Below are positions 3,284 through 45,772 of a DNA stretch of 64,000 nt, piece after piece. The position numbers and the translations under genes are program-made. The notes below the pieces were generated by a model. That model saw nothing but the letters and a program-made list of their open reading frames with translations. It did no database searches and was not told the DNA's origin. How positions within the stretch are numbered: the first letter of the stretch is position 1; the number at the start of each line of letters is the position of its first letter. The DNA comes from Rhodothermales bacterium (GTDB lineage Bacteria > Bacteroidota > Rhodothermia > Rhodothermales > JANQRZ01), in the NCBI GenBank assembly GCA_965215165.1, contig CBDCCX010000006.1, forward strand, positions 2,350,959 through 2,414,958, given 5' to 3'.

Positions 3284-3305
3284 CAGAAAGCCCATCGCCC
3301 GATTT

Positions 3306-20688: not shown

Positions 20689-20754
20689 TGGGCTGACAGG
20701 CCTTTGGCACCGCGCCGCCCGATCTTGCCCTCTCCTCTCTTCACCTCTCCCCTC

Positions 20755-22024
<1,270 letters not shown>

Positions 22025-22038
<14 letters not shown>

Positions 22039-24812: not shown

Positions 24813-24836
24813 CCCCGCCTCACAGAGTCGCCTGCC

Positions 24837-25787: not shown

Positions 25788-25812
25788 CGGCGCGCCCCCG
25801 CGCGCTTCTCCG

Positions 25813-26703
25813 ATGCCTGCCCTCTCTCCCTCTTCTCTTCGCACCGCGTTCCGGGCGCTCGTCGGCGACGGCGACTACCCCTGCGTGATGGCGAAGTCCG
25901 CGCTCCGGCGCGGCGAGGTGGCCTTCCACGCCTACCCGACCTTCGACGCGTCCGCGGCCGATGCGCTCGCGCGCGACCTCGCCCTGTTTGCGCACGCGCC
26001 CGAGCCGGAGCGGGGGGTACGCTCGTTCGTGGCCGTCTTCGGCGGCGACGCGCCCGCCTCGGAACGCGCGTTCGAGGAGCGGCTGTGGGCCATGCTCTCC
26101 GCCCTTCACGCTCGCGACGGCGCAGGTTGGGATCCGGCCGTCTCCGCCGACCCCGCCGATCCCGAGTTCTCGTTTTCGTTCGCCGGGCGGGCGTTCTACG
26201 TCGTCGGGATGCACCCGCGCGCGTCGCGGCCGGCTCGCCGGCTGGGGCACCCGGCGCTCGTGTTCAACCCGCACGAGCAGTTCGAGCAGCTGCGGCGCGA
26301 GGGGCGCTACGCGAAGGTCCGCAGCCTCATCCGCGAGCGCGACCGCGCGCTCGCCGGTTCGGTGAACCCGATGCTCGACGACTTCGGCGTGCGGAGCGAG
26401 GCGCGGCAGTACGCCGGCCGGGCCGTGGGGGAGGGCTGGCAGTGCCCGTTCGCGGCGGAAGCCGAGGCGGAAGCCGAGGCGGAAGCCGAGGCGGAAGCCG
26501 AGGCGGAAGCCGAGGCGGAAGCCGACGCCGAGACGCCGCCCCGTCCCTCCACTTTTGACGTGCGGCTACGCGCCGGCCGCATCCACCCTCCCTCTCCTCA
26601 TCCCCCCTCGTCATGTCCCGCCTCCGCGCCGTCAACCCCTCGCTCTGGATCGCCGACACCCCCCGCACCGACTACGACACGCTCGGAGCCGGCGAGCGAA
26701 TAG
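25813..26703 (+). CDS. YqcI/YcgG-family protein (family of the heme N-oxygenase GntA) with an (AE)n repeat and a Pro/Ser-rich tail
   Basis: PCVMAKSAL, SFVAVF, FSFSFAGRAFYVVGMHP, ALVFNPHEQF and RYAGRAVGEGWQCPF are family-typical blocks. The last 91 nt overlap the next gene, so the true 3' end is uncertain. Confidence 0.7.
   Translation: MPALSPSSLRTAFRALVGDGDYPCVMAKSALRRGEVAFHAYPTFDASAADALARDLALFAHAPEPERGVRSFVAVFGGDAPASERAFEERLWAMLSALHARDGAGWDPAVSADPADPEFSFSFAGRAFYVVGMHPRASRPARRLGHPALVFNPHEQFEQLRREGRYAKVRSLIRERDRALAGSVNPMLDDFGVRSEARQYAGRAVGEGWQCPFAAEAEAEAEAEAEAEAEAEAEAEADAETPPRPSTFDVRLRAGRIHPPSPHPPSSCPASAPSTPRSGSPTPPAPTTTRSEPASE
26452..26532 (+). repeat. 12-bp tandem repeat GCCGAGGCGGAA (5 perfect copies at 26461..26520, plus degenerate flanking copies)
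   Basis: Read directly from the sequence. It encodes AEAEAE... inside the YqcI/YcgG gene, and the period is a multiple of 3. Confidence 0.95.
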
Positions 26704-28157
26704 CGGCGGACGTGGTCGTCGTCGGGGCCGGGATCACCGGGCTCACGACGGCTCTCCTCCTCCAGCAGGACGGCGCGCGCGTGGCGCTCGTCGAGGCAGG
26801 GCGCGTGTGCGCCGGCGTCACGGCCTTCACGACGGGCAAGGTCACCTCGCTCCACGGCCTCATCTACGGCCCCTTGCAGGAGAAATTCGGCGAGGAGACC
26901 GCCCGCGTCTACGGCGAGGCGAACGAGGCGGCCGTCGCCCAGGTCGCCGCGCTCGTCGAGGAGCTGGGACTCGACTGCGGCTGGGAGCGGCGGCCGAACT
27001 ACACCTACACCACCGACGAAAAGACGCTGCCCGCCGTCGAGCGCGAGGTCGAGGCGGCCCAGCAGGCGGGGCTGGCGGCCTCGTTCACGACTGAGACCGA
27101 GCTGCCCTTCCCCGTCCTCGGGGCCGTCCGCGTCGAGGACCAAGCGCAGTTCCACGCGCGGAGGTACGGGCTCGGGCTGGCCGAGGCGTTCCGCGCGCGG
27201 GGCGGGCAGATTTTCGAGGAGAGCCGCGTCGTGGACGTGGACACCGCCGAGGGGCGATGCATGACCGAGAGCGGCGGCACGGTCGAGGCGGAGCACGTCG
27301 TCCTCGCCACGCACCTCCCGATCCTCGACCGCGGCGGCTTTTTCGCCAAGACGCACCCGCAGCGGACCTACCTCATGGCGTTCGAGACGCCCGAGCCCGC
27401 CCTCCAGAACATGTACCTCAGCAAGGGCGGCGGGCCGTCGTGGACGCTCCGCAGCGCCGAGGGCGGGCGCTACCTGGTCGCCGGCGGCCAGAGCCACAAG
27501 ACGGGCGAGGAGGCCGACACCCCGGCCCGCTACGCCGCGGTGGAGCGCTGGGCGCGCGAGCACTTCGGCGTCGGGCCGGCCGCCCACCGCTGGAGCGCGC
27601 ACGACTACGTGCCCGTCGACGAGATGCCGTACATCGGGAAGCTCCCGTTCGGGAACGGCCGCGTCTTCGTTGCCACCGGCTACAACAAGTGGGGGCTCTC
27701 GAACGGCACCGTCGCCGCGCTCATCCTCGCCGACGCCGTGGCCGGGCGGCCGAACCCGTGGGCCGAGACGTTCGACGCGAACCGGGCCGACCTCGCGGCC
27801 TCGGCGAAGGAGTTCGTCAAGGAGAACCTCGACGTGGCCGCCCGCTTCGCCGGCGACCGCATCCGCCACCTGGTCGGCCGCGACCCGGCCGAGCTGGGAC
27901 CGGACGAGGGCGCCGTCGTCGAGGCCGGCGGGCGGCGCGTCGGTGCCTACCGCGACGCGGAGGGACGGCTCCACGCCGTCTCCCTGACGTGTACCCACCT
28001 CGGCTGCCACGTGAACTGGAACCCCGCCGAGCGCTCGTGGGACTGCCCCTGCCACGGCTCGCGCTACGACGTGGACGGCCGCATCCTCCACGGCCCCGCC
28101 GTCCGCCCCCTCGACCGCGTTTCCCTCGACGACGAGCCCCTCGACGACGATGCCTGA
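26613..28157 (+). CDS. FAD-dependent oxidoreductase fused to a C-terminal Rieske [2Fe-2S] domain
   Basis: 514 aa. DVVVVGAGITGLTTALLL dinucleotide-binding motif. Rieske ligand motifs CTHLGCHV ... CPCHGSRY. Confidence 0.85.
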   Translation: MSRLRAVNPSLWIADTPRTDYDTLGAGERIAADVVVVGAGITGLTTALLLQQDGARVALVEAGRVCAGVTAFTTGKVTSLHGLIYGPLQEKFGEETARVYGEANEAAVAQVAALVEELGLDCGWERRPNYTYTTDEKTLPAVEREVEAAQQAGLAASFTTETELPFPVLGAVRVEDQAQFHARRYGLGLAEAFRARGGQIFEESRVVDVDTAEGRCMTESGGTVEAEHVVLATHLPILDRGGFFAKTHPQRTYLMAFETPEPALQNMYLSKGGGPSWTLRSAEGGRYLVAGGQSHKTGEEADTPARYAAVERWAREHFGVGPAAHRWSAHDYVPVDEMPYIGKLPFGNGRVFVATGYNKWGLSNGTVAALILADAVAGRPNPWAETFDANRADLAASAKEFVKENLDVAARFAGDRIRHLVGRDPAELGPDEGAVVEAGGRRVGAYRDAEGRLHAVSLTCTHLGCHVNWNPAERSWDCPCHGSRYDVDGRILHGPAVRPLDRVSLDDEPLDDDA

Positions 28158-28839
28158 CCTCGAGCCCGAACCCGCCCTCACGCCCCTCGCCGGCCGCTGC
28201 CGGATCGCGCCCTCCAGCGGGACCGCCTTCCGCCTCCGCCGCGGGCAGCGCTTGCGCGTGACCGACCCGGAGGGTCAGCAGGTCTCGGACCTGATGGTTT
28301 TCGCCGACCCGCCCGACGGGCCGGACCCCGGCCACTGGCTCAGCTCCGGCCGCACGTTCGACTACGAGGAGACGATCCGGCTCACGACGGGCCACCGGCT
28401 CTGGAGCAACCGGAGCGAGCCCATGCTCACCATCACCGAGGACACGTGCGGCGTCCACGACTTCCTCCTCACGCCCTGCTCGCCCGAGATGTACACGCTC
28501 CTCTACGGCCTCCCGCCGGGCCACGAGCATGCGAGCTGCCTGATGAACCTCGCCCGTCACCTCGGCCCGTTCGGGATGGGCCGCGACCGCGTGCCGACCA
28601 CGTTCAACATCTTCATGAACGTGCCAGTCCGTCCCGACGGCTCGCTCTCCGTCGAGCCGCCGACGAGCCGGCCGGGGGATTACGTCGTGTTCCGGGCCGA
28701 GATGGACCTGGTCGTCGGGCTCACGGCGTGCGCGGCCGAGGGCACCAACAACGGCGCGCTCAAGCCCATCGACTTCGAGGTGCTCCCGCCCGAGGCGGAG
28801 GCCGAACCCGAGACGGCTGCGGCCGAGGTAGCGCGATGA
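28150..28839 (+). CDS. DUF1989 protein (urea-carboxylase-associated / carboxyguanidine-deiminase-type family)
   Basis: 229 aa with an 8-nt overlap (ATGCCTGA) to the previous gene. GQQVSDLMVF, GVHDFLLTPCS, NIFMNVPV, PGDYVVFRAEMDLVVGLTAC. Confidence 0.75.
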   Translation: MPDLEPEPALTPLAGRCRIAPSSGTAFRLRRGQRLRVTDPEGQQVSDLMVFADPPDGPDPGHWLSSGRTFDYEETIRLTTGHRLWSNRSEPMLTITEDTCGVHDFLLTPCSPEMYTLLYGLPPGHEHASCLMNLARHLGPFGMGRDRVPTTFNIFMNVPVRPDGSLSVEPPTSRPGDYVVFRAEMDLVVGLTACAAEGTNNGALKPIDFEVLPPEAEAEPETAAAEVAR

Positions 28840-29288: not shown

Positions 29289-29329
29289 CTCCGCCTCCAG
29301 GCTCTATCACGCCCGTCTGGGTCACGGTC

Positions 29330-29398
29330 GTCCGCCCCTTCGGCCGCGTGCCTCTCGACGACGAGCCCCCGACGATGCCTGACCTCCCGCCCGAGCCC
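29330..29398 (+). repeat. Relic copy of the junction between the Rieske gene 3' end and the DUF1989 gene 5' end
   Basis: About 70 bp closely similar to 28101..28172. Both the ...VRPxxRVxLDDEP end and the MPDLxPEP start are recognisable. Confidence 0.75.
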
Positions 29399-29520
29399 TA
29401 CCTCCTCTACCTCGCCTGCTTCCAGACTGGACGGTCGTCCTCTCGTCGTGGGCGTAACCCGTACATCGGGAACCGGTCGGGTGTCGTCCCCGTGCCTCCG
29501 TAGGACCGGCCGACGCCCTC

Positions 29521-29550
29521 ACGAAGGGGCCGGATACGAAGGGGCCGGAT
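29521..29550. repeat. Perfect 15-bp tandem duplication (ACGAAGGGGCCGGAT x2)
   Basis: Read directly from the sequence, 47 nt upstream of the small ORF at 29597. Confidence 0.9.
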
Positions 29551-29596
29551 CGCCCGCGCCTGACGTTCGCTTTCTCCACCGCCGCTCGCAAGGCCC

Positions 29597-29821
29597 ATGA
29601 AGACCACCCCGCCCCGCCAGGACCCGGCCGACATCCGAGAAACCATCGACCCCGAAAGCGTCGTGGAAGAGGCGTCGCTGGAGTCGTTCCCCGCGAGCGA
29701 CCCGCCCGGTTACACCGGCGGCAAGGCCACGCCCGGCAGGTCCGCATCGTACTCTGCCGCGGACGCCAAAGACGCGCGCACCCGTGCCGAGCGGCGAGCG
29801 TCCGAGGGCGACGCTCGGTAG
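29597..29821 (+). CDS. Small conserved hypothetical protein with an ESFPASDPP motif
   Basis: 74 aa with an ATG start. The SLESFPASDPPGYTGG motif recurs in small hypothetical proteins of many GC-rich bacteria (from memory). Confidence 0.45.
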   Translation: MKTTPPRQDPADIRETIDPESVVEEASLESFPASDPPGYTGGKATPGRSASYSAADAKDARTRAERRASEGDAR

Positions 29822-29879
29822 CCCCGCTCCGGCAGCCCCGACCGAAAGCCGTTCCACCTGACACCTCCGCGCGTACGCG

Positions 29880-30253
29880 GTGGCCTGGATCGCCGGCGGG
29901 GAGGGGGACGCCGCTCCAGCCGAGCGCCGCCCACCCCGACCACGGGATCGCCAGGCCGAGGAGCGCGAAGACGGGGACCGAGAAAAAGCGGTTCACCGCC
30001 TCCTGCCTGTGCTCCTCTCCCTCCGGCTCGTCCTCGCCGACGACCTGGACGAACGCCGCCCCGGCCGCGAAGACGACGAGGAGCTCCCGACGAGCCGCCC
30101 GCCGATGGCCCCAATGAGCGCCGCGAGCCAGAACTCCACCCCGAGCGTGGCCCAGACGACGAGCGTGCTCGCGGCCCACATCAGCGGCATCCCCAGCCCG
30201 AGGATGAGCACGAGCCCCCCGAGGGCTGCCAGTACGAGGTTGTACGGGTCCAT
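29880..30253 (-). pseudogene. Decayed cation:proton antiporter remnant
   Basis: The ATG at 30253 gives MDPYNLVLAALGGLVLILGLG..., an antiporter-like N-terminus. After about 55 codons the sense continues in another frame as ...AVNRFFSVPVFALLGLAIPWSGWAALGWSG, a C-terminal-type segment. Most of the gene is missing. Confidence 0.4.
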
Positions 30254-30509
30254 GGTCGGCGCTGGAGCGCACGAGGTCGGCGAGCTGAACCCCGGAGGCA
30301 AGATCCGTATCGCGGGGTGCCGACCCGCCCGCCCCCTTACTCGGAGCCGCGAGAGGTCGCGCGGCGCCCCCAGAAGTACAGCTTCCGGCTTTTCGGAGAG
30401 CCCACAAGCTACGCCAGCAGGCGGCTCTGCTAGAGCGCCGAGGCTCCGTTGCCGGAGTGTCAAGCCTCCGTACGATCCGGTGCTGAAGGCGGGGGCAGCG
30501 CCTTCGCAC

Positions 30510-30902: not shown

Positions 30903-31116
30903 GGCGGGAGCAGAGATAGGTGAGAGGACGGGGTTAACTAGCGGCGGAGCTGGCCGGTTCTACTGCGCGCCCGGAGCCCGGAGAATTAGGGATTCTCCCA
31001 GCCCAGCCTCCTGCTCTCCCCGGCATCCCCCTTCGGACGGCCCTGAGGCAACCCAACCCGGAGGTTCCGTCGTAAACTTCCCGCCCCTCTCCCGTCCGCT
31101 CCTCTCTCCCCTCTCC

Positions 31117-32100
31117 ATGACCCGAATCGGATTCGTCGGCGGCGGCGGCATCGCCCACCGCCACCTCCACGTCCTCAGCGACTTCAACGACGTCGTGCTC
31201 GCAGCCGTTGCCGACCCTGCCTGCGCCGAGGAGGCCGCCGCCGCCTTCGGCATGACGGCCTACCCTAGCCACGCGGCGATGCTCGACGCCGAAGACCTCG
31301 ACGCCGTCTACGTGTGCGTCCCGCCCTTCGCACACGGCGAGCCCGAGCAGGCGCTCATCGAACGTGGCCTCCCGTTCTTCGTCGAGAAGCCGCTCGCGCT
31401 CGACCTCGATACCGCCGAGGAGGTTGCCGAGGCGGTCGAAGAGGCGGGCTTGGTGACGGCTGTCGGCTACCACTGGCGCTACATGCGGCACGTCGAAGCG
31501 GCGAAGGCAACGCTCGACGGCCGGCCCGCCCGCCTCGCGCTCGGCACCTGGCTCGGCGACACGCCGCCGGCAATGTGGTGGCGCAAGCAAGATGGTTCGG
31601 GCGGGCAGATGCTCGAGCAGACGACCCACCTCTTCGACCTGGCCCGCCACCTGGTCGGCGAGGCGACGAGCGTCGCTGCCGTCGGCGGGCGCACGGACCG
31701 CGCCGCCTTCCCCCACCTCGACGTGCACGACGCGACGGCCGCGCTCGTGACCTTCGAGAGCGGGGCCGTCGGGACCTTCGCCTCGACGTGCCTGCTCGGC
31801 TGGACGCACCGCGTCGGGCTGCATCTCTTCGGCGACCGGCTGGCCGTCGAGGTCGGCGAGCACGAGGTGATGATCGACGTCGGCGAGGGCCGGCCGGTCA
31901 CGCCGGGCGAGGGCGACCCCGTGGTCTTCGAAGACCGCGACTTCGTCGACGCCGTGCAGGGCAAGGCCAATGCGATCCGCGTGCCCTACGCCGAGGCCCT
32001 CAAGACGCAGCGCCTCAGCGTCGCGGCTCAGCAGGCGCTCGAGACCGGCGAGACCGTCGAGATCGGGACCCACTCCGTCGGGGAGGGTGCCCATGCCTGA
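31117..32100 (+). CDS. Gfo/Idh/MocA-family NAD(P)-dependent oxidoreductase
   Basis: 327 aa. MTRIGFVGGGGIAHRH Rossmann start, and VEKPLA motif. Confidence 0.85.
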   Translation: MTRIGFVGGGGIAHRHLHVLSDFNDVVLAAVADPACAEEAAAAFGMTAYPSHAAMLDAEDLDAVYVCVPPFAHGEPEQALIERGLPFFVEKPLALDLDTAEEVAEAVEEAGLVTAVGYHWRYMRHVEAAKATLDGRPARLALGTWLGDTPPAMWWRKQDGSGGQMLEQTTHLFDLARHLVGEATSVAAVGGRTDRAAFPHLDVHDATAALVTFESGAVGTFASTCLLGWTHRVGLHLFGDRLAVEVGEHEVMIDVGEGRPVTPGEGDPVVFEDRDFVDAVQGKANAIRVPYAEALKTQRLSVAAQQALETGETVEIGTHSVGEGAHA

Positions 32101-33250
32101 ACAGCAGACCCCCGAGAGCGGGACCCGCCCCGTCCAGAGCCTCGGCGTCGAGCGGGAGGGCGCGGCCTACATCTGGGGCTACGACGAGGGGCCGCTCGAG
32201 GACGGCCGCTTCCGCGTCGAGACCCTCTACACCGGCCTCTCGGCAGGCACCGAGCTGACGTTCTTCAAGGGCACCAATCCGTACCTCCACAGCCGCTACG
32301 ACGGCGCGTGGGGCGTCTTCCGCGACGGCGAGCCGAGCGCTGCCTACCCTGTTCCGTTTCTGGGCTACATGGAGGTCGGCCGCGTCACCGAGAGCCGCAC
32401 CGACGCCGTGCGCCCCGGCCAGATCGTCGGGATGACCTACGGCCACAAGACCGGCCACACCGCCGACCCGGCGCACGAGCAGTTCGCCGTCCTCCCCGAC
32501 GGCCTCGACCCGGTGCTCGGCATCTACGCCGCGCAGATGGGGCCGATCTGCGCCAATGGCCTGCTCCACGCCGCCGCCGACCTCCACGGCGCGAGCGCCT
32601 CCGACCTCGGGGACGGCGTGCGCGGCCGGCTCGTGCTGGTCATGGGCGGTGGGACGATCGGCCTGCTGCTTGGGCGGTGGGCGAAGTGGCTCGGCGCGGC
32701 CGAGGTCGTGCTCGCCGACCCGACTCCGGCGCGGCGCGCCGCCGCCGAGGCGCTCGGCCTGCGCGCGCTCCCCGGCTTCGAGGAGGCCGCCGCGTGGTGC
32801 AAGCAGCACTGGCATTTCGGCGACGGCGACCGCGGGGCCGAGGTCGTCTTCCAGTGCCGAGGCCAGGACGCCGCGCTCGAGGCGGCGCTCAAGGCGCTCC
32901 GCCCCCAGGGCACCGTCATCGACCTGGCGTTCTACCAGGGCGGCAGCCCGAACGTCCGCCTCGGCGAGGCCTTTCACCACAACGGCCTCCGCCTCCAATG
33001 CGCCCAGATCGGCCGCGTCCCGCGCGAGCTGACGTCGAACTGGACCCGGCGACGGCTGATGCACGAAACCGTCCGGTTCCTCGTCGCCAATGGCGAGGCG
33101 ATCCGGGAGCACGTCGTCACCGACATCGTCCCGTTCGAGGACGCGCCCGAGCTGATGCGCGCCCTGGCCGAGCGCGAGCGGCACGTGGTCCAGGCCGTCT
33201 TCGCCGTGAGCGGAGCCCCTACGGGTAGCCCCAGCGGGGAGGTGTCGTGA
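32093..33250 (+). CDS. MDR-superfamily (zinc-type alcohol dehydrogenase-like) oxidoreductase
   Basis: 385 aa with an 8-nt overlap (ATGCCTGA) to the previous gene. GLSAGTELTFFKG, VLVMGGGTIGLLLG nucleotide-binding motif. Confidence 0.7.
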   Translation: MPEQQTPESGTRPVQSLGVEREGAAYIWGYDEGPLEDGRFRVETLYTGLSAGTELTFFKGTNPYLHSRYDGAWGVFRDGEPSAAYPVPFLGYMEVGRVTESRTDAVRPGQIVGMTYGHKTGHTADPAHEQFAVLPDGLDPVLGIYAAQMGPICANGLLHAAADLHGASASDLGDGVRGRLVLVMGGGTIGLLLGRWAKWLGAAEVVLADPTPARRAAAEALGLRALPGFEEAAAWCKQHWHFGDGDRGAEVVFQCRGQDAALEAALKALRPQGTVIDLAFYQGGSPNVRLGEAFHHNGLRLQCAQIGRVPRELTSNWTRRRLMHETVRFLVANGEAIREHVVTDIVPFEDAPELMRALAERERHVVQAVFAVSGAPTGSPSGEVS

Positions 33251-34386
33251 TGGAGACGCCCCACCCGCGCCGCGTGCTCTTCGTCTTCGGCTGGCTCGTC
33301 GTCGGCGGTGAGGAGACTGAGGTCCGCCACCTCACCCGTCATCTCCCTGCGCGCTGGCAGATCGACGTGGTTGCCTGCTTTCGCAAGGACGGGATGCCGG
33401 AGCAGACGCACGATCAGCTCGAAGCGCTCGGCGTCGACATCGACCGGACGCCCTACGGCCTCTCGCTCGAGGAGACGGTCGCGTACCTCGCCGACGAGAA
33501 GATTCCGGGCTACGACCTGATCGTCGCCTGCCAGGCGGTGCGCGACATCGTCCCGGCGCTCGACCGCCTCGCGGCACGTGGCGAGGTCCCGCCGCCGCTC
33601 ATCGAGCACGGCGGCTTGGTCGTCGAGGCGGGGCAGACGCCGAAGCACCGGACCGCGCGCTACGTCGGCGTCTGCGACACGATCCGGCAGGCGGCGGCCG
33701 AGGCGATGCCGGACCGGCCCGAGGCGGCCTGCGCCATTCCGTCGATGGTGGATCTGGACGAGTTCGACCCGGCCCCCCGAGCCAACGTCCGCGCCGAGCT
33801 AGGCGTCCTCGGCGAGGCACCGCTCGTCGGGTGGGTCGGCCGGCTCGACCGGAAGAAGCGGGTCGAGGACTTCGTCCGTGCCGCCGCGCTCTTAGCCGAG
33901 GACCGACCCGAAGCCCGGTTCGTCGTGGTCGGCGGGCCGGACGCGTTCATGCCCGAGTACGCCGACGAGCTGCGGGCGCTCGCCGACGGCCTCGGCCTGG
34001 CCGAGCGGCTGACCTGGACCGGCGACCGGCCGGACGTGCCGCGCCTGCTGGCCGGCCTCGACGTGTTCGTGTGGCTGGCGCAGGGCGAGGGGATGCCGCA
34101 CGTGATCGCCGAGGCGGGGGCCGCCGGGCTGCCGGTCGTCGCCACGCGCGACAACGGCACGCTGGAGCAGATCACCGACGGCGAGACCGGCCTGTTCGTC
34201 CCGCACCGAAACCCCGAAGCCGTCGCGGCTGCCGTCGCCCGACTCCTCGACGACACTGGGCTTCGCCAGAAGCTCGGGCGCGCGCTCCGGCGTAAGGTCG
34301 AGCGCGAGTACGCCGTCCCCGTCGTCGTCCGTCAGTGGGAGGCGCTCTTCGACGGGGTCCTCGCCGAGCGCGCCACCTTCGTCTAG
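33247..34386 (+). CDS. Glycosyltransferase family 4
   Basis: 379 aa. Its start overlaps the previous stop (GTGATG). GWVGRLDRKKR, EGMPHVIAEAGAAGLPVVATRDNGTLEQITDGETGLFVP. Confidence 0.85.
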   Translation: MMETPHPRRVLFVFGWLVVGGEETEVRHLTRHLPARWQIDVVACFRKDGMPEQTHDQLEALGVDIDRTPYGLSLEETVAYLADEKIPGYDLIVACQAVRDIVPALDRLAARGEVPPPLIEHGGLVVEAGQTPKHRTARYVGVCDTIRQAAAEAMPDRPEAACAIPSMVDLDEFDPAPRANVRAELGVLGEAPLVGWVGRLDRKKRVEDFVRAAALLAEDRPEARFVVVGGPDAFMPEYADELRALADGLGLAERLTWTGDRPDVPRLLAGLDVFVWLAQGEGMPHVIAEAGAAGLPVVATRDNGTLEQITDGETGLFVPHRNPEAVAAAVARLLDDTGLRQKLGRALRRKVEREYAVPVVVRQWEALFDGVLAERATFV

Positions 34387-35570
34387 ACGCCAATCTCTTG
34401 GTCCTCCCCCAGCCCACTCTCTCTGGTCTGCCGCCGCCGCACCCGGCGTTGGAGGCGTGCGTCGTCATCCCGGCGAAGGACGAGGAGGCGCTCCTGCCCC
34501 ACGCCCTCGCCGCGCTCGCAGGACAGTGTGACCTCGAGGGCCGCCCGCTCGGCCCGGACCGCTACGAGGTGATCGTGTTGGCGAACAACTGCACCGATGC
34601 CACGGCCGAGGTGGCGCGGCAGGTCGGCCAGGCGCACGACCTCCGGCTCTGGGTTGCCGAGTGCCTCTTCGCGCCCGGCGAGGCCAGCGTTGGCCGCGCG
34701 CGCCGGCTCCTGATGAACACGGCCTGCTACCGCCTGATCGCCACGGGTCGCCTCGGCGGCGCGATCCTCTCGACCGACGCCGACTCCGAGGTCGCGCCGG
34801 ACTGGGTCGCGGCCACGCTTGCGGAGCTCGGGGACGGCGTGGACGGGGTTGGGGGCCGGATCCTGCTGCGGGACCGGGCGGCGCTCGACGCTCGCATCCG
34901 GCGCTCGGTCCTGCTCGACGTCGGGTACCACCGGTGGGTGCAGGAGCTCCACACCCTGCTCGACCCCGACGCGCACGACCCGTTCCCCCGGCACCACCAG
35001 CACCTCGGGGCCTCGCTCGCGGTCACGGCGGCGGCCTACGCCCGGTGCGGCGGGATGCCGCTGGTGACGCACGCCGAGGACGTCGCGCTCTTCGACGCCG
35101 TCGAGGCGGTCGGGGGTCGGTTCCGTCACAGCCCGCGCGTCCAGGTCTACACCTCGGCGCGGCGCGGCGGGCGCGCCCCGCACGGGCTGAGCGCTGCCCT
35201 GGGGGCCTGGACGGCCGAAGTGCAGGAGCGCGGGACACACACGTTCCGAGTCGAGGCCGCAGCCGTCACCGAGCGGAGACTGGCGCTGCGGGGCCGCGTC
35301 CGCCGGCTCTGGCACGCGCAGCCCCACCCCGACCCCGACGAGGCCGCGTCACTCGCGCGCGAGCTAGGTCTCTCGGCGCGCGCCTTGCTCGGCACGCTCG
35401 CCGGTGCTCCGACGGCCACCGCCGCCGCCGCCCTCACCGAGGATCAGCGACGCCGGCACGACGCAGTGCTCCCACCCGAGCCTATCGAGCAAGCGACCCG
35501 AACGCTTCGGGAGCGCGTCGGGGTGCTCCGCGTGTACTCCGCCGTCCCGCCCCTCGCCCTCTGCCCGTAG
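34335..35570 (+). CDS. Glycosyltransferase family 2
   Basis: CVVIPAKDEE ... VIVLANNCTDAT ... LSTDADS (DxD-type motif). The start is uncertain: ATG at 34335 (52-nt overlap), or TTG at 34398 or 34449. Confidence 0.7.
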   Translation: MGGALRRGPRRARHLRLDANLLVLPQPTLSGLPPPHPALEACVVIPAKDEEALLPHALAALAGQCDLEGRPLGPDRYEVIVLANNCTDATAEVARQVGQAHDLRLWVAECLFAPGEASVGRARRLLMNTACYRLIATGRLGGAILSTDADSEVAPDWVAATLAELGDGVDGVGGRILLRDRAALDARIRRSVLLDVGYHRWVQELHTLLDPDAHDPFPRHHQHLGASLAVTAAAYARCGGMPLVTHAEDVALFDAVEAVGGRFRHSPRVQVYTSARRGGRAPHGLSAALGAWTAEVQERGTHTFRVEAAAVTERRLALRGRVRRLWHAQPHPDPDEAASLARELGLSARALLGTLAGAPTATAAAALTEDQRRRHDAVLPPEPIEQATRTLRERVGVLRVYSAVPPLALCP

Positions 35571-35573
35571 CGT

Positions 35574-36764
35574 ATGCCTCTTCCCTATCCCCTCTCCGCA
35601 GACCGGGCGACGCGCGGCGGCTCTGCACCCACCGACGCTGGCACGCCGTCGCCCGCTGCGAAGCTGCTGCGCGCAGCCGAGGCCCTCGCCCCCCGGCTCG
35701 CGGTGTCGGCTGCGTCCGACCGGCGCGATTTTCCAGAGCAGGACATCGAGGCGCTGCGGGCCGCCGGTCTCCTAGCCGCGTCCGTACCAACCGCCGCAGG
35801 GGGGGCCGGCTTAGGGCAGGAGCCGGGCACGCTCCACCCGCTCTACGCCGTCCTGCGCGCCGTCGGCCGGGGCAGCCTGCCGGTGGGCCGGATCTACGAA
35901 GGACACCTCGGGGCACTCGATCTCATCAACGCGTACGGGGATGCTCGGCAGCGCGCCGCGGCCTTTGCCGACGCCCGCGCCGGGCACCTCTTTGGGGTCT
36001 GGCACACCGATGGAACTCGCGGCCTCCGCCTGGTGCCGGAGCGGGGCCGGGTGCGGATCGAGGGCGACAAGGTGTTCTGCTCCGGGGCCGGCGGTGTGAC
36101 GCGCGCGCTCATCAACGGCCGGCCTCCGAGGGCAAAAGGCGACTGGCAGCTCGCGCTCGTCCCGCTCGACGAAACGGCGGTGACGGTCGAGCCGGGCTGG
36201 TGGCAGGCCGAGGGGATGCGGGCCTCCGTCAGCGGGCGCGCTGACTTTACAGGCGTCACGCTCGGTCCCGGAGCGCTCATCGGCGGGCCGGGCGACTGCG
36301 TGCGCGAGCCGCTCTTCACGGCCGGGGCCGTCCGGTTCTGCGCCGTCTGGCTCGGCGGGGCTGAGGCGCTCTTCGACGCCGCCGCCGCCACGCTCCGCCG
36401 CCTCGACCGGCTCGGCGATCCGCTCCAGCAGGCCCGGCTCGGCGAGGCCGCGACGGCGCTGGAGACGGGCGCGCTGTGGCTCCTCGGCGCGGCACGGCTC
36501 TTCGAGCGCGGGGCGGACGCGGCCTCCCAAATCGCCTACGCCCGGATGGCGCGGACGGCCACCGAGCGCGTCTGCCTCGACGTGCTCGAGCTCGTCGACC
36601 GGTGCCTCGGAGCGCGCGGCTTGCTCCCCCCCTCCCCGGTGGAGCGGATCGGGCGGGACCTCCGGCTCTTCCTCCGCCAGCCCGGCCCCGACGCGATGCT
36701 GACGGCCGCCGGCCACTTCGCCGCCGCGAGGCCAGGGCGGGCGCTCGGCTCCGAGGTCCGCTGA
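35574..36764 (+). CDS. Acyl-CoA dehydrogenase-fold protein
   Basis: 396 aa, starting 4 nt after the GT2 stop. The middle beta-domain and C-terminal helical domain pattern is present (KVFCSGAG..., IGRDLRLFLRQP). Confidence 0.65.
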   Translation: MPLPYPLSADRATRGGSAPTDAGTPSPAAKLLRAAEALAPRLAVSAASDRRDFPEQDIEALRAAGLLAASVPTAAGGAGLGQEPGTLHPLYAVLRAVGRGSLPVGRIYEGHLGALDLINAYGDARQRAAAFADARAGHLFGVWHTDGTRGLRLVPERGRVRIEGDKVFCSGAGGVTRALINGRPPRAKGDWQLALVPLDETAVTVEPGWWQAEGMRASVSGRADFTGVTLGPGALIGGPGDCVREPLFTAGAVRFCAVWLGGAEALFDAAAATLRRLDRLGDPLQQARLGEAATALETGALWLLGAARLFERGADAASQIAYARMARTATERVCLDVLELVDRCLGARGLLPPSPVERIGRDLRLFLRQPGPDAMLTAAGHFAAARPGRALGSEVR

Positions 36765-37504
36765 TGCCGGCCCGGCCCTCGGTCCTCGGCGCGCTAGCGA
36801 GCGCGCCCCTTCGCCCGCCCGAGACCGTCGCCGCGCTCGGCCGGACGCTCGTCGTAGCCCCGCACCCGGACGACGAATCGCTCGGCTGCGGCGGCCTGCT
36901 CGCGCTCCTGGCTCAGCGCGGGCAGCCCGCCTGCGTCGTCGTCGTCAGCGACGGGACCGGCTCGCACCCCGGCTCGGTTGCCTGGCCCCCGCCTCGCCTT
37001 CGGGCGCTCCGGGAGCAGGAAACGCAGCGCGCCCTCGAGGCCCTCGGGCTCACCGGCGCGGCGCGCTTCCTGCGTCTCCCTGATGGAGCCGTGCCGCACC
37101 CCGGCGAGGCGCGCTTCGAGCAGGCTGCCGCTGCCCTCGGGTCCACCTTCCGCACCTTCGGCCCCGACACCGTCCTCGTCCCGTGGCGGCGCGACTCGCA
37201 CCCGGACCACCGCGCGGCGTGGCACCTCACGCAGGCCGCCGCGCCGCCGTGCCGGACCCTGGAATACCCCGTCTGGATGTGGGAGCGGGAGCACGACGGC
37301 GCACCGCAGCCGGGCGAGGTCGCGCCGTGGCGGCTCGACATCCGCACGGCCCTCGGGGCCAAGCGCCGCGCCGTCGCCGCCCACCGCTCGCAGACCACCG
37401 GCCTCATCGCCGACAGCACCGCCCCGTTCTGCCTTCCGCCCGAGATGCTCGCGCGCGCCTTCCGCCCGTGGGAGCTGTACCTCGACCCCGCCGCCCGTGC
37501 CTGA
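36764..37504 (+). CDS. PIG-L/LmbE-family N-acetylglucosaminyl deacetylase
   Basis: 246 aa with a TGATG overlap. VVAPHPDDESLGCGG and HPDHRAA metal-site motifs. Confidence 0.85.
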   Translation: MPARPSVLGALASAPLRPPETVAALGRTLVVAPHPDDESLGCGGLLALLAQRGQPACVVVVSDGTGSHPGSVAWPPPRLRALREQETQRALEALGLTGAARFLRLPDGAVPHPGEARFEQAAAALGSTFRTFGPDTVLVPWRRDSHPDHRAAWHLTQAAAPPCRTLEYPVWMWEREHDGAPQPGEVAPWRLDIRTALGAKRRAVAAHRSQTTGLIADSTAPFCLPPEMLARAFRPWELYLDPAARA

Positions 37505-38102
37505 GCACACCCTCTCCGAAGACTATTTCGAGCGGCTCTACGCCGAGCGCGACGACCCGTGGGCGTACGAGACGAGTCCCTACGAGGAGGCGAAGTACGA
37601 CGCCACGCTCGGCGCGCTGCCCCGCCCCCGCTACGCCTCAGCCCTCGAGATCGGGTGCTCGATCGGCGTGCTGACCGAGCGCCTCGCCGCGCGGTGCGGC
37701 CGGCTCCTGGCGCTCGACGGAGCCGCCCGCGCCCTGGAGCACGCCCGCGCCCGGTGCCGCGCCCTCGGGCACGTCCGCTTCCAGGAGCGCACCGTCCCGG
37801 CCTCCTTCCCGGACGGCCTCTTCGACCTCGTCCTCCTCTCCGAAGTCGGGTATTACCTCTCCCCGCCCGACCTCAACCGGCTCCGCGAGCGCCTCGTGCA
37901 GCACCTCGGACCGGGTGGGCACCTCGTCCTCGTCCACTGGCTCGCGCCCGTCCCCGGCTGCGCGCTCACCGGCGACGAGGTCCACGCCTCCTTTCTGGCC
38001 GACGCTCGGTTCCGCCCGCTCGCCGCGCACCGGCAGCCGCAGTACCGGCTCGACGTGCTCGAGGCCGTCTCGCGGCAGGTGGCCGACGGGCAGCGGTCGT
38101 AG
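37497..38102 (+). CDS. Class I SAM-dependent methyltransferase, NodS-like
   Basis: 201 aa. GTG start with an 8-nt overlap (GTGCCTGA). DDPWAYETSPYEEAKY ... ALEIGCSIGVLTERLA matches the NodS-family layout. Confidence 0.8.
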   Translation: MPEHTLSEDYFERLYAERDDPWAYETSPYEEAKYDATLGALPRPRYASALEIGCSIGVLTERLAARCGRLLALDGAARALEHARARCRALGHVRFQERTVPASFPDGLFDLVLLSEVGYYLSPPDLNRLRERLVQHLGPGGHLVLVHWLAPVPGCALTGDEVHASFLADARFRPLAAHRQPQYRLDVLEAVSRQVADGQRS

Positions 38103-38138: not shown

Positions 38139-39290
38139 GTGCGTATTTCAGACCTTCGGGGCTTGGCCGGACTGGCGACGCAGGCGGCGGCGGGGGTGAC
38201 GCGCATCGCCGAGGGTGTGCATCAGGCGGTGTGGAGCACGCTCGGGTTTCGCGGCGCGGCCCCCGGACGCGCGCGCGGGCTGACCGGCTTCGTCTACCAG
38301 CGCGTCCACGGCCTGACGCTCTCGACGGGGCGAGGCGTGGACGCCGTCCTGGCCCGGTTGGAGTCGGAAGATGCGCTGCCCGATACGCCCCGGCGCGAGA
38401 CGCTGGTCGCCGTCCTCAACGGCGTGCTGGGCGACCGGCTTGCCGAGGACGACAATCCGCTCGCGCTCCCGATGACGCTGCGCCTCCGAGGTGCCCCGCT
38501 CGACGCCGAGACACCGGTGCCGGAGGCGACGGGCAAGATCGCCGTCCTGATCCACGGCCTGTGCATGAGCGACGGGCACTGGCCGCGCGACGGCTACCAA
38601 GCGGCGCTCACCGCGCTCGGCTACACGCCGGTCTACGTCCGCTACAACTCCGGCCTCCACATCTCGCAGAACGGGCGCGCCCTCGCCGCCCAGCTAGACC
38701 GCCTGGTCGCCGACTGGCCCGTGGCGGTCACCGACCTGACGGTCGTGGCGCACAGCATGGGCGGCCTGCTGGCGCGGAGTGCGCTCCACTACGCCGGGCG
38801 CGAGGCCCAGGGCTGGCCGGCGGCCCTTCGGCACATCGTCTTCCTCGGCACCCCGCACCACGGCGCGCCGCTCGAGCGCGCCGGCAACTGGGTCGATACC
38901 ATCCTCGCCCGCACCGCCTTCACCGCGCCGTTCGCCGCGCTCGGCAAGGTCCGCAGCGCCGGCATCACCGACCTCCGCCACGGCTTCCTCCTCGACGCCG
39001 ACTGGCAGGGCCACGACCGCTTCCGACGACGCCCCGACGCCCGGCACATCGTCCCGCTGCCGGCCGGGGTCGCGTGCTACGCGGTCGCTGCCACCCGCTC
39101 GGCCGACCCCAGGGCGAGGCGGCTGCTCGGCGACGGCCTCGTCCCCTTGCCCAGTGCCCTGGACGACGACCGGCACCGGCTGGGCTTCGCGGCGCAGTGG
39201 ATCGCCTACGGCACGAGCCACTTCGACCTCCTGAGCGACCCCGCCGTGATCGACCAGGTCGCGGAGTGGCTGATGCCAGCGCCTGGCTGA
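38139..39290 (+). CDS. Alpha/beta-fold hydrolase (lipase/esterase-like)
   Basis: 383 aa with a GTG start. VLIHGL, nucleophile elbow VAHSMGG, GTPHHGAPLE. Confidence 0.7.
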   Translation: MRISDLRGLAGLATQAAAGVTRIAEGVHQAVWSTLGFRGAAPGRARGLTGFVYQRVHGLTLSTGRGVDAVLARLESEDALPDTPRRETLVAVLNGVLGDRLAEDDNPLALPMTLRLRGAPLDAETPVPEATGKIAVLIHGLCMSDGHWPRDGYQAALTALGYTPVYVRYNSGLHISQNGRALAAQLDRLVADWPVAVTDLTVVAHSMGGLLARSALHYAGREAQGWPAALRHIVFLGTPHHGAPLERAGNWVDTILARTAFTAPFAALGKVRSAGITDLRHGFLLDADWQGHDRFRRRPDARHIVPLPAGVACYAVAATRSADPRARRLLGDGLVPLPSALDDDRHRLGFAAQWIAYGTSHFDLLSDPAVIDQVAEWLMPAPG

Positions 39291-39347
39291 GGGGGCGCGC
39301 TCCTGTATCTTTCCCGCAGCTCCCCCTTCCCCATCCCCATTCTCGCC

Positions 39348-40859
39348 ATGCCGGTTTTCCGTCTGTCCCTCCTCGCCCTGCTGCTCGTCCTCGCCGCTTC
39401 GGCGATGGCCCAGCCCGCCCAGCCCATCGAGGCCGACGGGCCGTTCGCTGTCGGACGCACCGATGTCGTGTTCGACGACGCCGTCTTCGGCCAGGGCACG
39501 ATTCGGGGGCGCATCTACTACCCGGCGACGGCGGCCGGCGTGGAGACGCGGCCGAACCGGGGTGCCGGGCCGTTCCCGCTCGTCGCCTTCCAGCACGGCT
39601 TCCTCGGCCGGCCGAGCAACTACGACGACCTGTGCGAGCACATCGCGAGCTGGGGCTTCGTCGTCGCCTCGACCGGCACCCAGACCGGGTTCTTCCCGAA
39701 CCAGCAGCAGTACGCCCGCGACACGCGCTCGCTGCTCTACTACGTCGAGGACCAGTCGGACGCCGCCGGGTCGTTCTCCGGCATGGTCGACGACGGGCCG
39801 TGGGCGGCGGCGGGGCACTCGCTCGGCGGCGGCGTGCTGCCGCTGCTGATCGGGATCGAGCCGCGGGTACGGACGATCATCGGGCTGCAGTCGGCGTACG
39901 TGGGCGACGGGCGGATCGACAACCTCGAAGCGTTCACCGGCACGCATGTCCAGGTCGCCGGCTCGGTCGACCGCATCGTGCCCGCGTCCCAGGTCGTGCG
40001 CTACTTCCGGGTCGCCGACGACGCCCGGCGCGACATCTACTTCGAGGTCCAGGGCATGGGCCACAGCGGCCCGACCGACACCGTGCCGACGAACGAACCG
40101 CTCTCCGCCGCGGACCAGAAGCGCCTCCACCGCCGCCTCGTCACGGGCCTCCTGCGCGCCGAAGTAAAAGGCGAGGAAAACCTCTACGCCGAGATTCTGG
40201 GCGCAGGCATCGCCGACGAACCCGTCGAGTTCGAGGCGGTCTGCACCGACCCGCCGCTGTGGGTCCGCCCGAGCGTCAGCGACGCCGCCCTCGTCGTCGG
40301 CACCGCCGGTGAACCTGGGGCCGAGGCCGTCCTGGCGTGGTCCGACGCGCGCGCCGCCCGCCCGTCGCCGTTCGGCCAGGTCGGCATCGCCCTCGCGCCG
40401 GAGCGTGTCCTCTTCCGCGGCTCCGCCAATGCCGACGGCGTCGCCGAAACGCTCCTGCCCCTCGCCGATCTCGGCGCTGCCGACAGCGTCTTCGTCCAGG
40501 GCCTAGCGGTCGGGCGGGTCACGCGCGTCGATGCCCGCAACAACCTCGAGGCCGGAGCCGCGTCGCGCAGTGGCGAAGGGACCGGCACGCGCCTGCTCGG
40601 TGCGTTCCCCAACCCGTTCCGCGACGGCCTCACCGTGGGGTACACCCTCGCGGAGACCGGCTCGGTCGCGCTGACGGTGTACGACGTGCTCGGGCGCGAG
40701 GTGGCGGTGCTCGTAGCCGGCGAGCAGGCTGGCGGGCCGCACGAGGCGCGGTGGGATGGCCGCGACCAAACGGGCCGAGCCACTGCGGCGGGGCTGTATG
40801 TCGTGCGCCTCCGTGCCGGCAGCACGGTGCACGCCGAGACCCTCGTGCGGATACGCTAG
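39348..40859 (+). CDS. Secreted chlorophyllase/cutinase-like serine hydrolase with a T9SS C-terminal sorting domain
   Basis: Signal peptide MPVFRLSLLALLLVLAASAMAQ. PLVAFQHGFLG...HIASWGFVVAS, GHSLGGG, SVDRIVP, GMGHSG (putative Ser-Asp-His triad). The C-terminal ~80 aa (FPNPFRDGLTVGYTL...GLYVVRLRAG...) is a Por/T9SS CTD. Confidence 0.75.
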   Translation: MPVFRLSLLALLLVLAASAMAQPAQPIEADGPFAVGRTDVVFDDAVFGQGTIRGRIYYPATAAGVETRPNRGAGPFPLVAFQHGFLGRPSNYDDLCEHIASWGFVVASTGTQTGFFPNQQQYARDTRSLLYYVEDQSDAAGSFSGMVDDGPWAAAGHSLGGGVLPLLIGIEPRVRTIIGLQSAYVGDGRIDNLEAFTGTHVQVAGSVDRIVPASQVVRYFRVADDARRDIYFEVQGMGHSGPTDTVPTNEPLSAADQKRLHRRLVTGLLRAEVKGEENLYAEILGAGIADEPVEFEAVCTDPPLWVRPSVSDAALVVGTAGEPGAEAVLAWSDARAARPSPFGQVGIALAPERVLFRGSANADGVAETLLPLADLGAADSVFVQGLAVGRVTRVDARNNLEAGAASRSGEGTGTRLLGAFPNPFRDGLTVGYTLAETGSVALTVYDVLGREVAVLVAGEQAGGPHEARWDGRDQTGRATAAGLYVVRLRAGSTVHAETLVRIR

Positions 40860-45560: not shown

Positions 45561-45665
45561 ATAAGGGCAAGCGACCCGCATCGCGCCGCTACGACCTCCT
45601 ACCGCTGCTGCCTTCCGGCCCTGACGGAGTTCAGAGGGAGCTGGCCGTACGGGACTTGCCCTTAT
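45561..45665 (-). ncRNA. ffs: Signal recognition particle RNA (small/4.5S type)
   Basis: The minus strand reads ...CCGUCAGGGCCGGAAGGCAGCAGCGG..., which is the conserved domain IV with a GGAA tetraloop and flanking symmetric-loop residues. The molecule is closed by an 11-bp terminal stem (AUAAGGGCAAG/CUUGCCCUUAU). Confidence 0.8.
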
Positions 45666-45772
45666 GCCGCCGGCAGGCCCACACGCTCGGGCGGCCGGAC
45701 TCCAGTGATGCCAATATACACAGACGCCGTAGGCCGGATCCGCGTCACGCGATTTTCAACGGCTGCGCTGTT

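Follow-up and report, generated by a model that had tools for sequence, protein, structure and literature searches.

The 64,000-nucleotide stretch of DNA considered here, called the window below, comes from a Rhodothermales bacterium (GenBank assembly GCA_965215165.1, contig CBDCCX010000006.1, positions 2,350,959 to 2,414,958). Its G+C content is about 72%, and its closest relatives are Rhodothermales such as Rubrivirga. Seven genes occupy positions 31117-38102 on the + strand. The first three encode a Gfo/Idh/MocA oxidoreductase (Gfo, 31117-32100), an MDR-type dehydrogenase (32093-33250) and a family 4 glycosyltransferase (GT4b, 33247-34386). They are followed by genes for a family 2 glycosyltransferase of the GT-A fold (GT2, 34398-35570, with an alternative GTG start at 34335), a flavoprotein with the acyl-CoA dehydrogenase (ACAD) fold (35574-36764), a PIG-L/LmbE-family de-N-acetylase (36764-37504) and a NodS-like class I S-adenosylmethionine (SAM) methyltransferase (37497-38102). 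A first-pass annotation of this DNA had treated the seven genes as one unit in which N-acetylglucosamine (GlcNAc) is transferred, de-N-acetylated and N-methylated. Comparison with other genomes shows that the widely conserved unit is the quartet of genes 4-7, rather than all seven.

The seven genes are indeed as closely packed as that annotation described, with stops and starts that overlap or nearly abut at all six junctions. The Gfo and MDR genes share 8 nt (ATGCCTGA; MDR start at 32093, Gfo stop at 32098-32100), and the MDR and GT4b genes overlap in GTGA (GT4b start at 33247, MDR stop at 33248-33250). The GT4b stop lies at 34384-34386, and the GT2 start is ambiguous between a GTG at 34335, which gives a 52-nt overlap, and a TTG at 34398, which leaves an 11-nt gap and is the start used by the database protein P0121. 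Further downstream, 3 nt separate the GT2 and ACAD-fold genes (35570/35574), the ACAD-fold and PIG-L genes overlap by 1 nt in TGATG, and the PIG-L and methyltransferase genes share 8 nt (GTGCCTGA; 37497/37504). The start of the PIG-L gene had to be moved, its ATG being at 36764 rather than 36762. However, an upstream + strand array at 19459-28839 is equally tightly packed, with an ATGA at 23179-23182 and a 4-nt overlap at 24300-24303, and therefore packing alone does not define a seven-gene unit. Tight packing is a property of this genome region and no signature of the seven genes.

The distribution of the genes among other genomes identifies the unit. An alignment of five GT2 sequences, scanned against one genome per species, yielded 80 loci from the Rhodothermales, Bacteroidota, Cyanobacteriota, Deinococcota, Acidobacteriota, Chloroflexota, Armatimonadota, Actinomycetota and Pseudomonadota. 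The proteins of the window were then compared by tblastn with those 62 loci in which the GT2 match was solid and flanked by at least 5 kb in both directions. The NodS-like methyltransferase gene is present within 6 kb of the GT2 gene in 58 of the 62, the ACAD-fold gene is nearby in 52 and a deacetylase gene in 54 (36 PIG-L and 18 carbohydrate esterase family 4, CE4), and 48 loci have all three beside GT2. The trio of Gfo, MDR and GT4 genes, on the other hand, is found near GT2 at a single locus (L011). Co-conservation thus holds for the quartet and fails for the set of seven.

The quartet is co-located in at least eight phyla, and its gene order and strand vary across the Rhodothermales, Bacteroidota, Cyanobacteriota, Deinococcota, Armatimonadota, Acidobacteriota, Actinomycetota and Pseudomonadota. 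In Rubrivirga marina and Hymenobacter, homologues of the ACAD-fold gene lie beside GT2, PIG-L and NodS-like genes, and the Gfo, MDR and GT4 genes are missing. A search of plasmid proteins with GT2 recovered the quartet in shuffled order from Bradyrhizobium, Sulfitobacter, Sphingobium, Acinetobacter soli and Deinococcus gobiensis. Moreover, GT2 and the ACAD-fold protein are fused in one Rubrivirga protein (WP_420455145.1). The GT2 family as a whole comprises 392 representative clusters (50% identity) at E<=1e-30. Some loci hold less. In Deinococcus radiodurans (L004, from a record labelled plasmid 3), GT2 stands alone: within a distance of 6 kb there is neither a methyltransferase gene nor one for a deacetylase or an ACAD-fold protein, in contrast to D. 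gobiensis and other genomes of Deinococcus. At the locus with the closest relative of the ACAD-fold protein (79% identical; L092, 3957-5507), a fragment of a GT-B glycosyltransferase gene lies directly 5' of the ACAD-fold gene, and neither GT2 nor Glf was called there. This locus looks like a case of cluster decay or rearrangement.

Genes 1-3 belong to a separate cassette (module A), whose position next to the quartet is peculiar to this Rhodothermales lineage. The MDR protein has homologues of 58-66% identity in distant phyla; those of Deinococcus, Caldilineaceae and Sphingomonadaceae are 58-64% identical and are always encoded beside Gfo and GT4 genes. The order is GT4a-Gfo-MDR in Deinococcus metallilatus (L094) and GT4a-Gfo-MDR-GT4b in the Caldilineaceae (L095) and Sphingomonadaceae (L096), and at none of these three loci is the quartet nearby. 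The window Gfo is 55-60% identical to the Gfo proteins of these cassettes, and its GT4b is 65-66% identical to the GT4b proteins of the latter two. The fourth member, GT4a (23179-24303, + strand), is 44-50% identical to the first GT4 of the three cassettes and sits 6.8 kb upstream of its usual partners in the window. It had been hidden inside a spurious open reading frame (ORF) of 676 codons (22273-24303), an artefact of high G+C content that covers the 3' part of an upstream gene in another frame together with the real GT4a. The upstream gene, which encodes a protein resembling glycoside hydrolase family 1 (GH1) and is described below, is joined to GT4a by an ATGA overlap. Among the relatives of the window, all seven genes stand in the same arrangement in L011 only, and in L091 with a single inserted gene, a GH1-like::cupin fusion between GT4b and GT2. 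Four other Rhodothermales, closer and more distant (L092, L093, L001 and L028), lack the trio.

As to their relatives of known structure, the best match of Gfo in the Protein Data Bank (PDB) is an inositol 2-dehydrogenase (4hkt, 1.4e-21), and inositol 2-dehydrogenases are its closest relatives, although it scores 107 bits against IolG (TIGR04380), whose cut-off is 355. ADH_zinc_N is the only domain detected in the MDR protein. The best PDB matches of GT4b are MshA (3c4q, 3e-17), sucrose-phosphate synthase and BshA. It scores 91.6 bits against MshA (TIGR03449, cut-off 462.5) and 74.1 bits against BshA (TIGR03999, cut-off 273.7); GT4a scores 67.4 and 96.6 bits, respectively. These matches, together with the tight coupling of all seven genes, their common presence in L011 and, with one insertion, in L091, and fusions of the GH1-like family that indirectly connect proteins of the trio and the quartet, could be taken to mean that the seven genes form one self-contained pathway. 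In such a pathway, the GT4 would place GlcNAc on a cyclitol or lipid tailored by Gfo and MDR, PIG-L would deacetylate it, and the NodS-like and ACAD-fold enzymes would modify the nitrogen. This is unlikely. The trio is so rarely beside the quartet, its cassette occurs without the quartet in three phyla, its fourth gene lies outside the seven, a further gene parts GT4b from GT2 in L091, and the deacetylase co-varies with GT2, not with GT4. The claim that the seven genes make up one unit is therefore abandoned, as is the view that a GT4 and the LmbE-type deacetylase form the core pair, the conserved partner of the deacetylase being GT2.

Profile searches confirmed the domain calls made earlier for all seven proteins, which lie above the Pfam gathering thresholds for GFO_IDH_MocA, ADH_zinc_N, Glycos_transf_1, Glycos_transf_2, Acyl-CoA_dh_N/1/2, PIG-L and NodS. 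Within the quartet (module B), the anchoring glycosyltransferase is a member of the GT2 (GT-A) family, with 40.3 bits against PF00535 (threshold 23.3) and the conserved motifs IPA(R/K)DE, TDAD and ED, of which T-D-A-D is invariant. Its AlphaFold model (mean predicted local distance difference test score, pLDDT, 89) is that of a soluble protein with a charged helical C-terminal domain, and Foldseek gives a probability of 1.0 to many GT2 structures, with K4CP, WrtF, RmlT, PcManGT, ArnC and TarS among the matches. The deacetylase belongs to the PIG-L family (PF02585, 1.5e-28; 100.3 bits, threshold 28.2) and possesses the motifs VVAPHPDDE and SHPDH. Its best PDB matches are TT1542, diacetylchitobiose deacetylase and BshB1. 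It nonetheless scores 20.4 bits against MshB (TIGR03445, cut-off 224) and 65.5 bits against BshB1 (TIGR04001, cut-off 182.5).

The methyltransferase falls within the broad NodS family yet is not NodS itself. It matches Pfam NodS at 3.4e-17 (63 bits, threshold 24) but reaches 76.1 bits with the NodS equivalog model NF041650, for which the cut-off is 300. The PDB entries closest to it are 4isc, an uncharacterised methyltransferase (3.8e-30), NodS 3ofj (2.8e-19) and phosphoethanolamine N-methyltransferases. A check of the catalytic residues found the motifs of both proteins intact, APHPDDE and HPDH in the deacetylase and the SAM-binding motif E-x-G-C-S-x-G in the methyltransferase. NmbA, the N-methyl-bacillithiol synthase, was considered as a model for the methyltransferase and dropped, as it methylates a cysteine nitrogen and the paper describing it gives no link to the NodS family. 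Genes for SAM synthetase (10825-12264) and S-adenosylhomocysteine hydrolase (13068-14363) precede the cluster by a few kb, which may be a coincidence of housekeeping genes or reflect a link to methyl supply.

The identity of the deacetylase is not constant among the loci. In Rubrobacter, Solirubrobacterales and Thermoleophilia, about 18-24 actinomycetotal loci in all, PIG-L is replaced by Polysacc_deac_1, a NodB-type CE4 deacetylase. The cassette there has the order CE4 Polysacc_deac_1, ACAD-fold protein, NodS-like methyltransferase, flavoprotein reductase (Pyr_redox_2/Reductase_C) and GT2. PIG-L and CE4 have unrelated folds, and N-acetylhexosamines are the well-known substrate class that the two have in common. 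The exchange of one for the other therefore indicates that de-N-acetylation of an N-acetylhexosamine is integral to the system, and it is the strongest evidence for this. Together with the conservation of the quartet in at least eight phyla, it lends strong support to the logic of GlcNAc transfer, de-N-acetylation and N-methylation that the first-pass annotation had proposed.

The role of the ACAD-fold protein required a different reading. The first-pass annotation had given it the acyl-CoA dehydrogenase fold and allowed for an acylated product, but the best NCBIfam matches of the protein are SfnB and DszC (65 bits against SfnB TIGR04022, cut-off 431), and a profile search of the PDB places DszC first (3e-31), with a "type 2" ACAD-fold monooxygenase, TdsC, MsuC, KijD3, DnmZ and nitrososynthase also ranking high. 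Its AlphaFold model (pLDDT 91) gives 5gj7, DszC, TdsC, KijD3, MsuC and DnmZ as the top Foldseek matches. Near its C-terminus, the motif RDLRL(F/Y)LRQP aligns with RNVRTHSLHDP of DszC. Its QPG aligns with the catalytic YEG of rat short-chain ACAD (SCAD, 1jqi) and with GEG of a Thermus thermophilus ACAD, so that the catalytic Glu is replaced by Pro; across 53 family members, Q369 is invariant and P370 nearly so. In addition, the actinobacterial cassette contains an inserted reductase gene, as would suit a flavin monooxygenase of two components, although that of the window has none. On these alignments and models, the protein is probably a two-component (group D) flavin monooxygenase of the DszC/KijD3 type, rather than an acyl-CoA dehydrogenase.

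If the protein were instead a true acyl-CoA or acyl-ACP dehydrogenase, an unsaturated acyl chain on the freed amine would give a lipo-glycoside resembling a Nod factor. The Acyl-CoA_dh Pfam domains, the RefSeq name of the Acinetobacter and Sulfitobacter homologues ("acyl-CoA/acyl-ACP dehydrogenase"), the scores of genuine ACADs just slightly under those of the monooxygenases, and the parallel between the GT2, deacetylase and NodS-like set and NodC, NodB and NodS all point in that direction. The possibility is nevertheless highly improbable, given the Pro at the position of the canonical catalytic Glu, the C-terminal motif shared with DszC and the reductase partner in the Actinomycetota. Furthermore, the cassette has no conserved companion gene for an N-acyltransferase, NodA-like or other, for an acyl carrier protein or for a ligase.

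The genes upstream of the row provide the third part of the cluster. The first-pass annotation had overlooked related genes at 19.4-24.3 kb, all on the + strand, which in addition to GT4a comprise a GT-B glycosyltransferase whose best NCBIfam match is TuaH (19459-20688), a UDP-galactopyranose mutase (Glf, 20704-22038; Pfam GLF, 6e-81) and a GH1-like (beta/alpha)8 protein of about 385 amino acids with no Pfam match (22025-23182). These three constitute module C, and all three modules lie within 19.4-38.1 kb of the window. The GT-B and Glf genes adjoin GT2 in 10-12 loci from six higher taxa (Deinococcus, Acidobacteriota, Rubrivirga, another Rhodothermales, Burkholderiales and Epilithonimonas). 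In these loci, the GT-B beside Glf and GT2 is 43-62% identical to that of the window. The Glf of the window is 62-73% identical to the GT2-adjacent Glf of Deinococcus, Acidobacteriota, Rubrivirga, Burkholderiales and Epilithonimonas.

The GH1-like protein appears to be a distant, shortened relative of GH1. Its profile matches GH1 beta-glucosidases at 7e-18, it scores 25 bits against TIGR03356, for which 478 are required, and its relatives are likewise without a Pfam match. NE and ETG are invariant in nine sequences, and the protein is 46% identical between an Acidobacteriaceae and a Rhodothermales genome. It is fused to the ACAD-fold protein in D. gobiensis and a metagenome-assembled genome (MAG) of the Deinococcaceae, to GT4a in the Caldilineaceae, to the GT-B in Bryobacteraceae and Burkholderiales, and to a cupin in L091. 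The fusions with the ACAD-fold protein, GT4a and the GT-B connect one protein family to all three modules, which are therefore functionally linked, though each can stand alone.

The cluster is interrupted by about 7 kb of lineage-specific genes, namely DUF2243, metallo-beta-lactamase (MBL), YqcI/YcgG, DAO-Rieske, DUF1989 and SPW genes and two on the minus strand. Three of these, YqcI/YcgG, DAO-Rieske and DUF1989 (25813-28839), are about 90% identical in L011 (613-3524) and L091 (1-2825), and in L091 they lie directly 5' of Gfo on the same strand. An ORF on the minus strand (29322-30509, 395 amino acids) has coding-like G+C content at third codon positions (GC3), lacks Pfam and NCBIfam matches and is 73% identical in L011. 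This interruption, the occurrence of modules A, B and C each on its own, and neighbours that vary widely among lineages would be expected if the modules were functionally unrelated and had merely been gathered in an accessory "stress island", so that the seven-gene row had no common product. That explanation is rather improbable, in that a single GH1-like family is fused to proteins of every module in different genomes, GT-B and Glf recur beside GT2 in such diverse taxa, and GT4b and GT2 are coupled, or nearly so, in the window at either of the two possible starts.

Two further + strand genes trail the row after gaps of 36 and 57 nt, which were correctly given before. They encode a PGAP1-like alpha/beta hydrolase (38139-39290; Pfam/NCBIfam) and a PETase-like alpha/beta hydrolase (39348-40859) with an FlgD_ig domain and a type A sorting tail of the type IX secretion system (T9SS). 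A weak terminator-like hairpin lies between them at 39290-39304. Neither hydrolase is part of the system; none of the 62 GT2-anchored loci carries either, the closest relatives L011 and L091 included, and they were rejected as members. The PETase-like hydrolase is probably secreted and unrelated to the cytoplasmic cluster.

The T9SS-tailed hydrolase, the five glycosyltransferases and Glf in the region, and the best NCBIfam matches of the GT-B (TuaH) and of the GT4s (PEP-CTERM and exopolysaccharide families) would suit a cell-surface glycan such as an O-antigen, a capsule, an S-layer glycan or a teichuronic-acid-like polymer. A locus of this kind is very unlikely. Among the genes of 17-42 kb, there is no Wzx, Wzy, ABC exporter, polyprenyl-phosphate priming transferase or chain-length regulator. 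The matches to polysaccharide families are all far under their cut-offs, the GT2 model is soluble with its charged C-terminal domain, and the quartet occurs by itself in most genomes, with cytoplasmic genes around it.

In several lineages, the cluster is accompanied by genes for stress protection. A catalase gene (17443-19221, minus strand; Pfam) is divergent from module C in the window and adjoins the quartet at four other loci, those of Sulfitobacter, Sphingobium, Fulvimarina and a Solirubrobacterales MAG (L007, L010, L046 and L068). It is a recurring neighbour rather than a core member. The ergothioneine genes EgtD (Methyltransf_33) and EgtB (FGE-sulfatase domain) lie directly beside the NodS-like methyltransferase and GT2 genes at four Acidobacteriota loci from two families (L018, L026, L030 and L031; for instance L031, 11686-13902, minus strand). 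The quartet adjoins Ku and LigD in Bradyrhizobium, and a trehalose-6-phosphate synthase gene is near it in A. soli.

The literature found assigns no function to the quartet and mentions it only as the neighbour of blsA. In Acinetobacter baumannii ATCC 17978, the quartet flanks this blue-light receptor gene (PMC6240043; PMC9948694), and RNA-seq data indicate that its four genes rise under blue light along with katE, otsA and otsB (PMC9948694 Data Set S1). Expressed as ratios calculated here from the published values in fragments per kilobase per million reads (FPKM), the change from dark to blue light is 1.9-fold for the glycosyltransferase AUO97_RS00035 (7.7 to 14.4), 2.1-fold for the class I SAM methyltransferase AUO97_RS00040 (8.1 to 17.1), 2.0-fold for the PIG-L deacetylase AUO97_RS00045 (15.6 to 30.9) and 1.7-fold for the hypothetical protein AUO97_RS00050 in the ACAD-fold position (12.4 to 20.7). 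These four genes were equated with the cassette by their annotation, lengths and order, which are as in the A. soli cassette compared by tblastn. The locus tag A1S_2230 denotes a neighbouring DUF2171 gene outside the cassette.

Based on this evidence, the genes belong to a modular glycoside system that is widely distributed but uncharacterised, a variant of the theme of GlcNAc transfer followed by de-N-acetylation. The explanation that we favor, and to which we would give an even chance, is that two independent cassettes have come together in this lineage to give the seven-gene row, inside a larger modular cluster for an intracellular stress glycoside. The soluble GT2 would transfer an N-acetylhexosamine, probably GlcNAc from UDP-GlcNAc, to a cytoplasmic acceptor, the deacetylase would free the 2-amine, and the NodS-like enzyme would methylate it. 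The ACAD-fold protein, acting as a monooxygenase dependent on reduced flavin, would then oxidise the product, possibly on the same nitrogen. Module A (GT4a, Gfo, MDR and GT4b) may provide a sugar or cyclitol, altered by oxidation and reduction, and attach it. Module C may add galactofuranose through the GT-B and Glf, with the GH1-like protein trimming the product or transglycosylating. Given the lack of genes for export and polymerisation and the repeated presence of stress genes nearby, the most likely product is a small glycoside that stays inside the cell and serves in oxidative, light or desiccation stress.

Several points weigh against this explanation. The donor sugar and the acceptor are deduced only from family membership, and the fold matches of GT2 are those of a generic GT-A enzyme. 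At 30-45% identity to NodS or 4isc, the regiochemistry of the methyltransferase (N or O) cannot be read. Deacetylase genes are not detectable nearby at L015, L023, L043 and L056, and in Acidobacteriota loci the ACAD-fold gene is missing from the surrounding 6 kb. It follows that the four steps do not depend strictly on one another, and that the substrate of the methyltransferase is not necessarily the freed amine. For the flavoprotein, true ACADs follow the monooxygenases closely in Foldseek, by a small margin, and the comparison of the catalytic Glu covered the "YEG" position of the short- and medium-chain enzymes (SCAD/MCAD), whereas the isovaleryl-CoA and long-chain type (IVD/LCAD) has its base at an alternative position. 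The induction by blue light is modest, about 2-fold at low expression and from FPKM ratios alone, and the stress neighbours differ among lineages, so that they could reflect a general clustering of accessory genes.

More tentatively, the three modules may jointly make an undescribed intracellular glycoside or pseudo-oligosaccharide. This would contain a glucosamine that is N-methylated and possibly also N-oxygenated, joined in some lineages by galactofuranose and a sugar or cyclitol altered by redox steps, and would represent a new class of stress protectant or redox buffer. Such a product is possible, though we consider it doubtful at present.

The system bears a partial likeness to several known pathways but, as the first-pass annotation held, it is none of those named there; no protein reaches the curated cut-off of MshA, MshB, BshA, BshB, NodS, IolG or SfnB. 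In mycothiol and bacillithiol synthesis (MshA/MshB and BshA/BshB), GlcNAc is likewise transferred to a small cytoplasmic acceptor and then acted on by a PIG-L/LmbE-family de-N-acetylase to yield a stress or redox metabolite. MshA and BshA are the best solved relatives of the GT4s in the window, whose PIG-L protein matches BshB1. In contrast, the conserved partner of the window deacetylase is a GT2 (GT-A) rather than a GT4, the scores are far below the equivalog cut-offs, and the quartet also includes a methyltransferase and a protein resembling flavin monooxygenases. The cluster has no cysteine ligase (MshC/BshC), no ligase-type family being found among the genes of 17-42 kb. The 2-deoxystreptamine aminoglycoside pathways differ in that neither a 2-deoxy-scyllo-inosose synthase nor an aminotransferase is among the Pfam results for the same genes.

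The Nod-factor core (NodC, a GT2; NodB, a CE4; and NodS) contains the same three enzyme classes in the same logical order, and the likeness extends to the NodB-type CE4 deacetylase of the actinobacterial variant and to the NodS-like methyltransferase. However, the GT2 model of the window is soluble and not that of a processive membrane synthase of the NodC type, no NodA acyltransferase is conserved with the cassette, and the cassette is spread through non-symbiotic bacteria. The group D flavin monooxygenases (DszC, TdsC, MsuC and SfnB, and the amino-sugar N-oxygenases KijD3, DnmZ and ORF36) provide the best profile and fold matches of the ACAD-fold protein, which has a DszC-like C-terminal motif, lacks the catalytic Glu of ACADs and, in one lineage, has a reductase encoded close by. 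The groups oxidised by KijD3 and DnmZ are sugar amines, of the type that the deacetylase would expose. Despite these similarities, the identity is only about 22%, and genes for sulfur metabolism or dTDP-sugars are missing nearby.

Two other pathways offer analogies of a more general kind. In the bacteriohopanetetrol (BHT)-glucosamine branch of hopanoid synthesis, the GT2 HpnI transfers GlcNAc to a non-sugar acceptor, and HpnK, which belongs to another (YdjC-like) deacetylase family, removes the acetyl group. The window has negligible scores for the HpnB and HpnI families and no squalene-hopene cyclase or HpnJ nearby. The mycobacterial clusters for polymethylated polysaccharides (MMP; ManT, MeT1, MeT3 and MmpH) are compact and cytoplasmic and combine glycosyltransferases, SAM methyltransferases and a dedicated glycoside hydrolase with no export genes. 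They O-methylate mannose and contain neither a deacetylase nor a flavoenzyme. As the enzyme families differ from those of the window, the likeness lies in the compact, export-free set of glycosyltransferase, methyltransferase and hydrolase.

Few signals for expression were recognized around the cluster. A scan with Rfam found no RNA elements in 17-42 kb, a scan for sigma-70 promoters gave nothing convincing, and aligning the region upstream of Gfo among three relatives produced no robust common motif. A CCGT(C)GTAAACT-like string lies 5' of Gfo in the window (31058-31075) and in L011 (about 150 nt upstream), at differing distances, and is missing from L091. Elsewhere in the window, the only Rfam match is a signal recognition particle (SRP) RNA of the "Bacteroidales small SRP" type (45561-45668, minus strand, 97.6 bits), which agrees with an origin in the Rhodothermales, and the only tRNA match is tRNA-Val(GAC) (3210-3284, + strand). 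An ORF of 546 amino acids at 14609-16249 (+ strand) has coding-like GC3 and no Pfam match.

In conclusion, the quartet is a compact four-gene cassette of uncharacterised function that is conserved in at least eight phyla, with a GT2 marker family of about 390 clusters. Its occurrence in the priority pathogen A. baumannii provides a tractable model. The label "acyl-CoA dehydrogenase" on its flavin monooxygenase-like protein is likely a widespread mis-annotation. In addition, a family-less GH1-like hub protein has been newly identified, and its fusions tie three glyco-modules together. If the proposed function is correct, the glycoside would be found widely among bacteria that tolerate desiccation and radiation (Deinococcus, Hymenobacter, Rubrobacter, terrestrial cyanobacteria and Acidobacteriota), and also in A. 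baumannii, where its genes lie beside a blue-light sensor gene. Should it prove to be a small molecule with a new protective role, it would rank with mycothiol, bacillithiol and ergothioneine among the stress metabolites that span lineages, and it could help to explain tolerance of desiccation and photo-oxidation.

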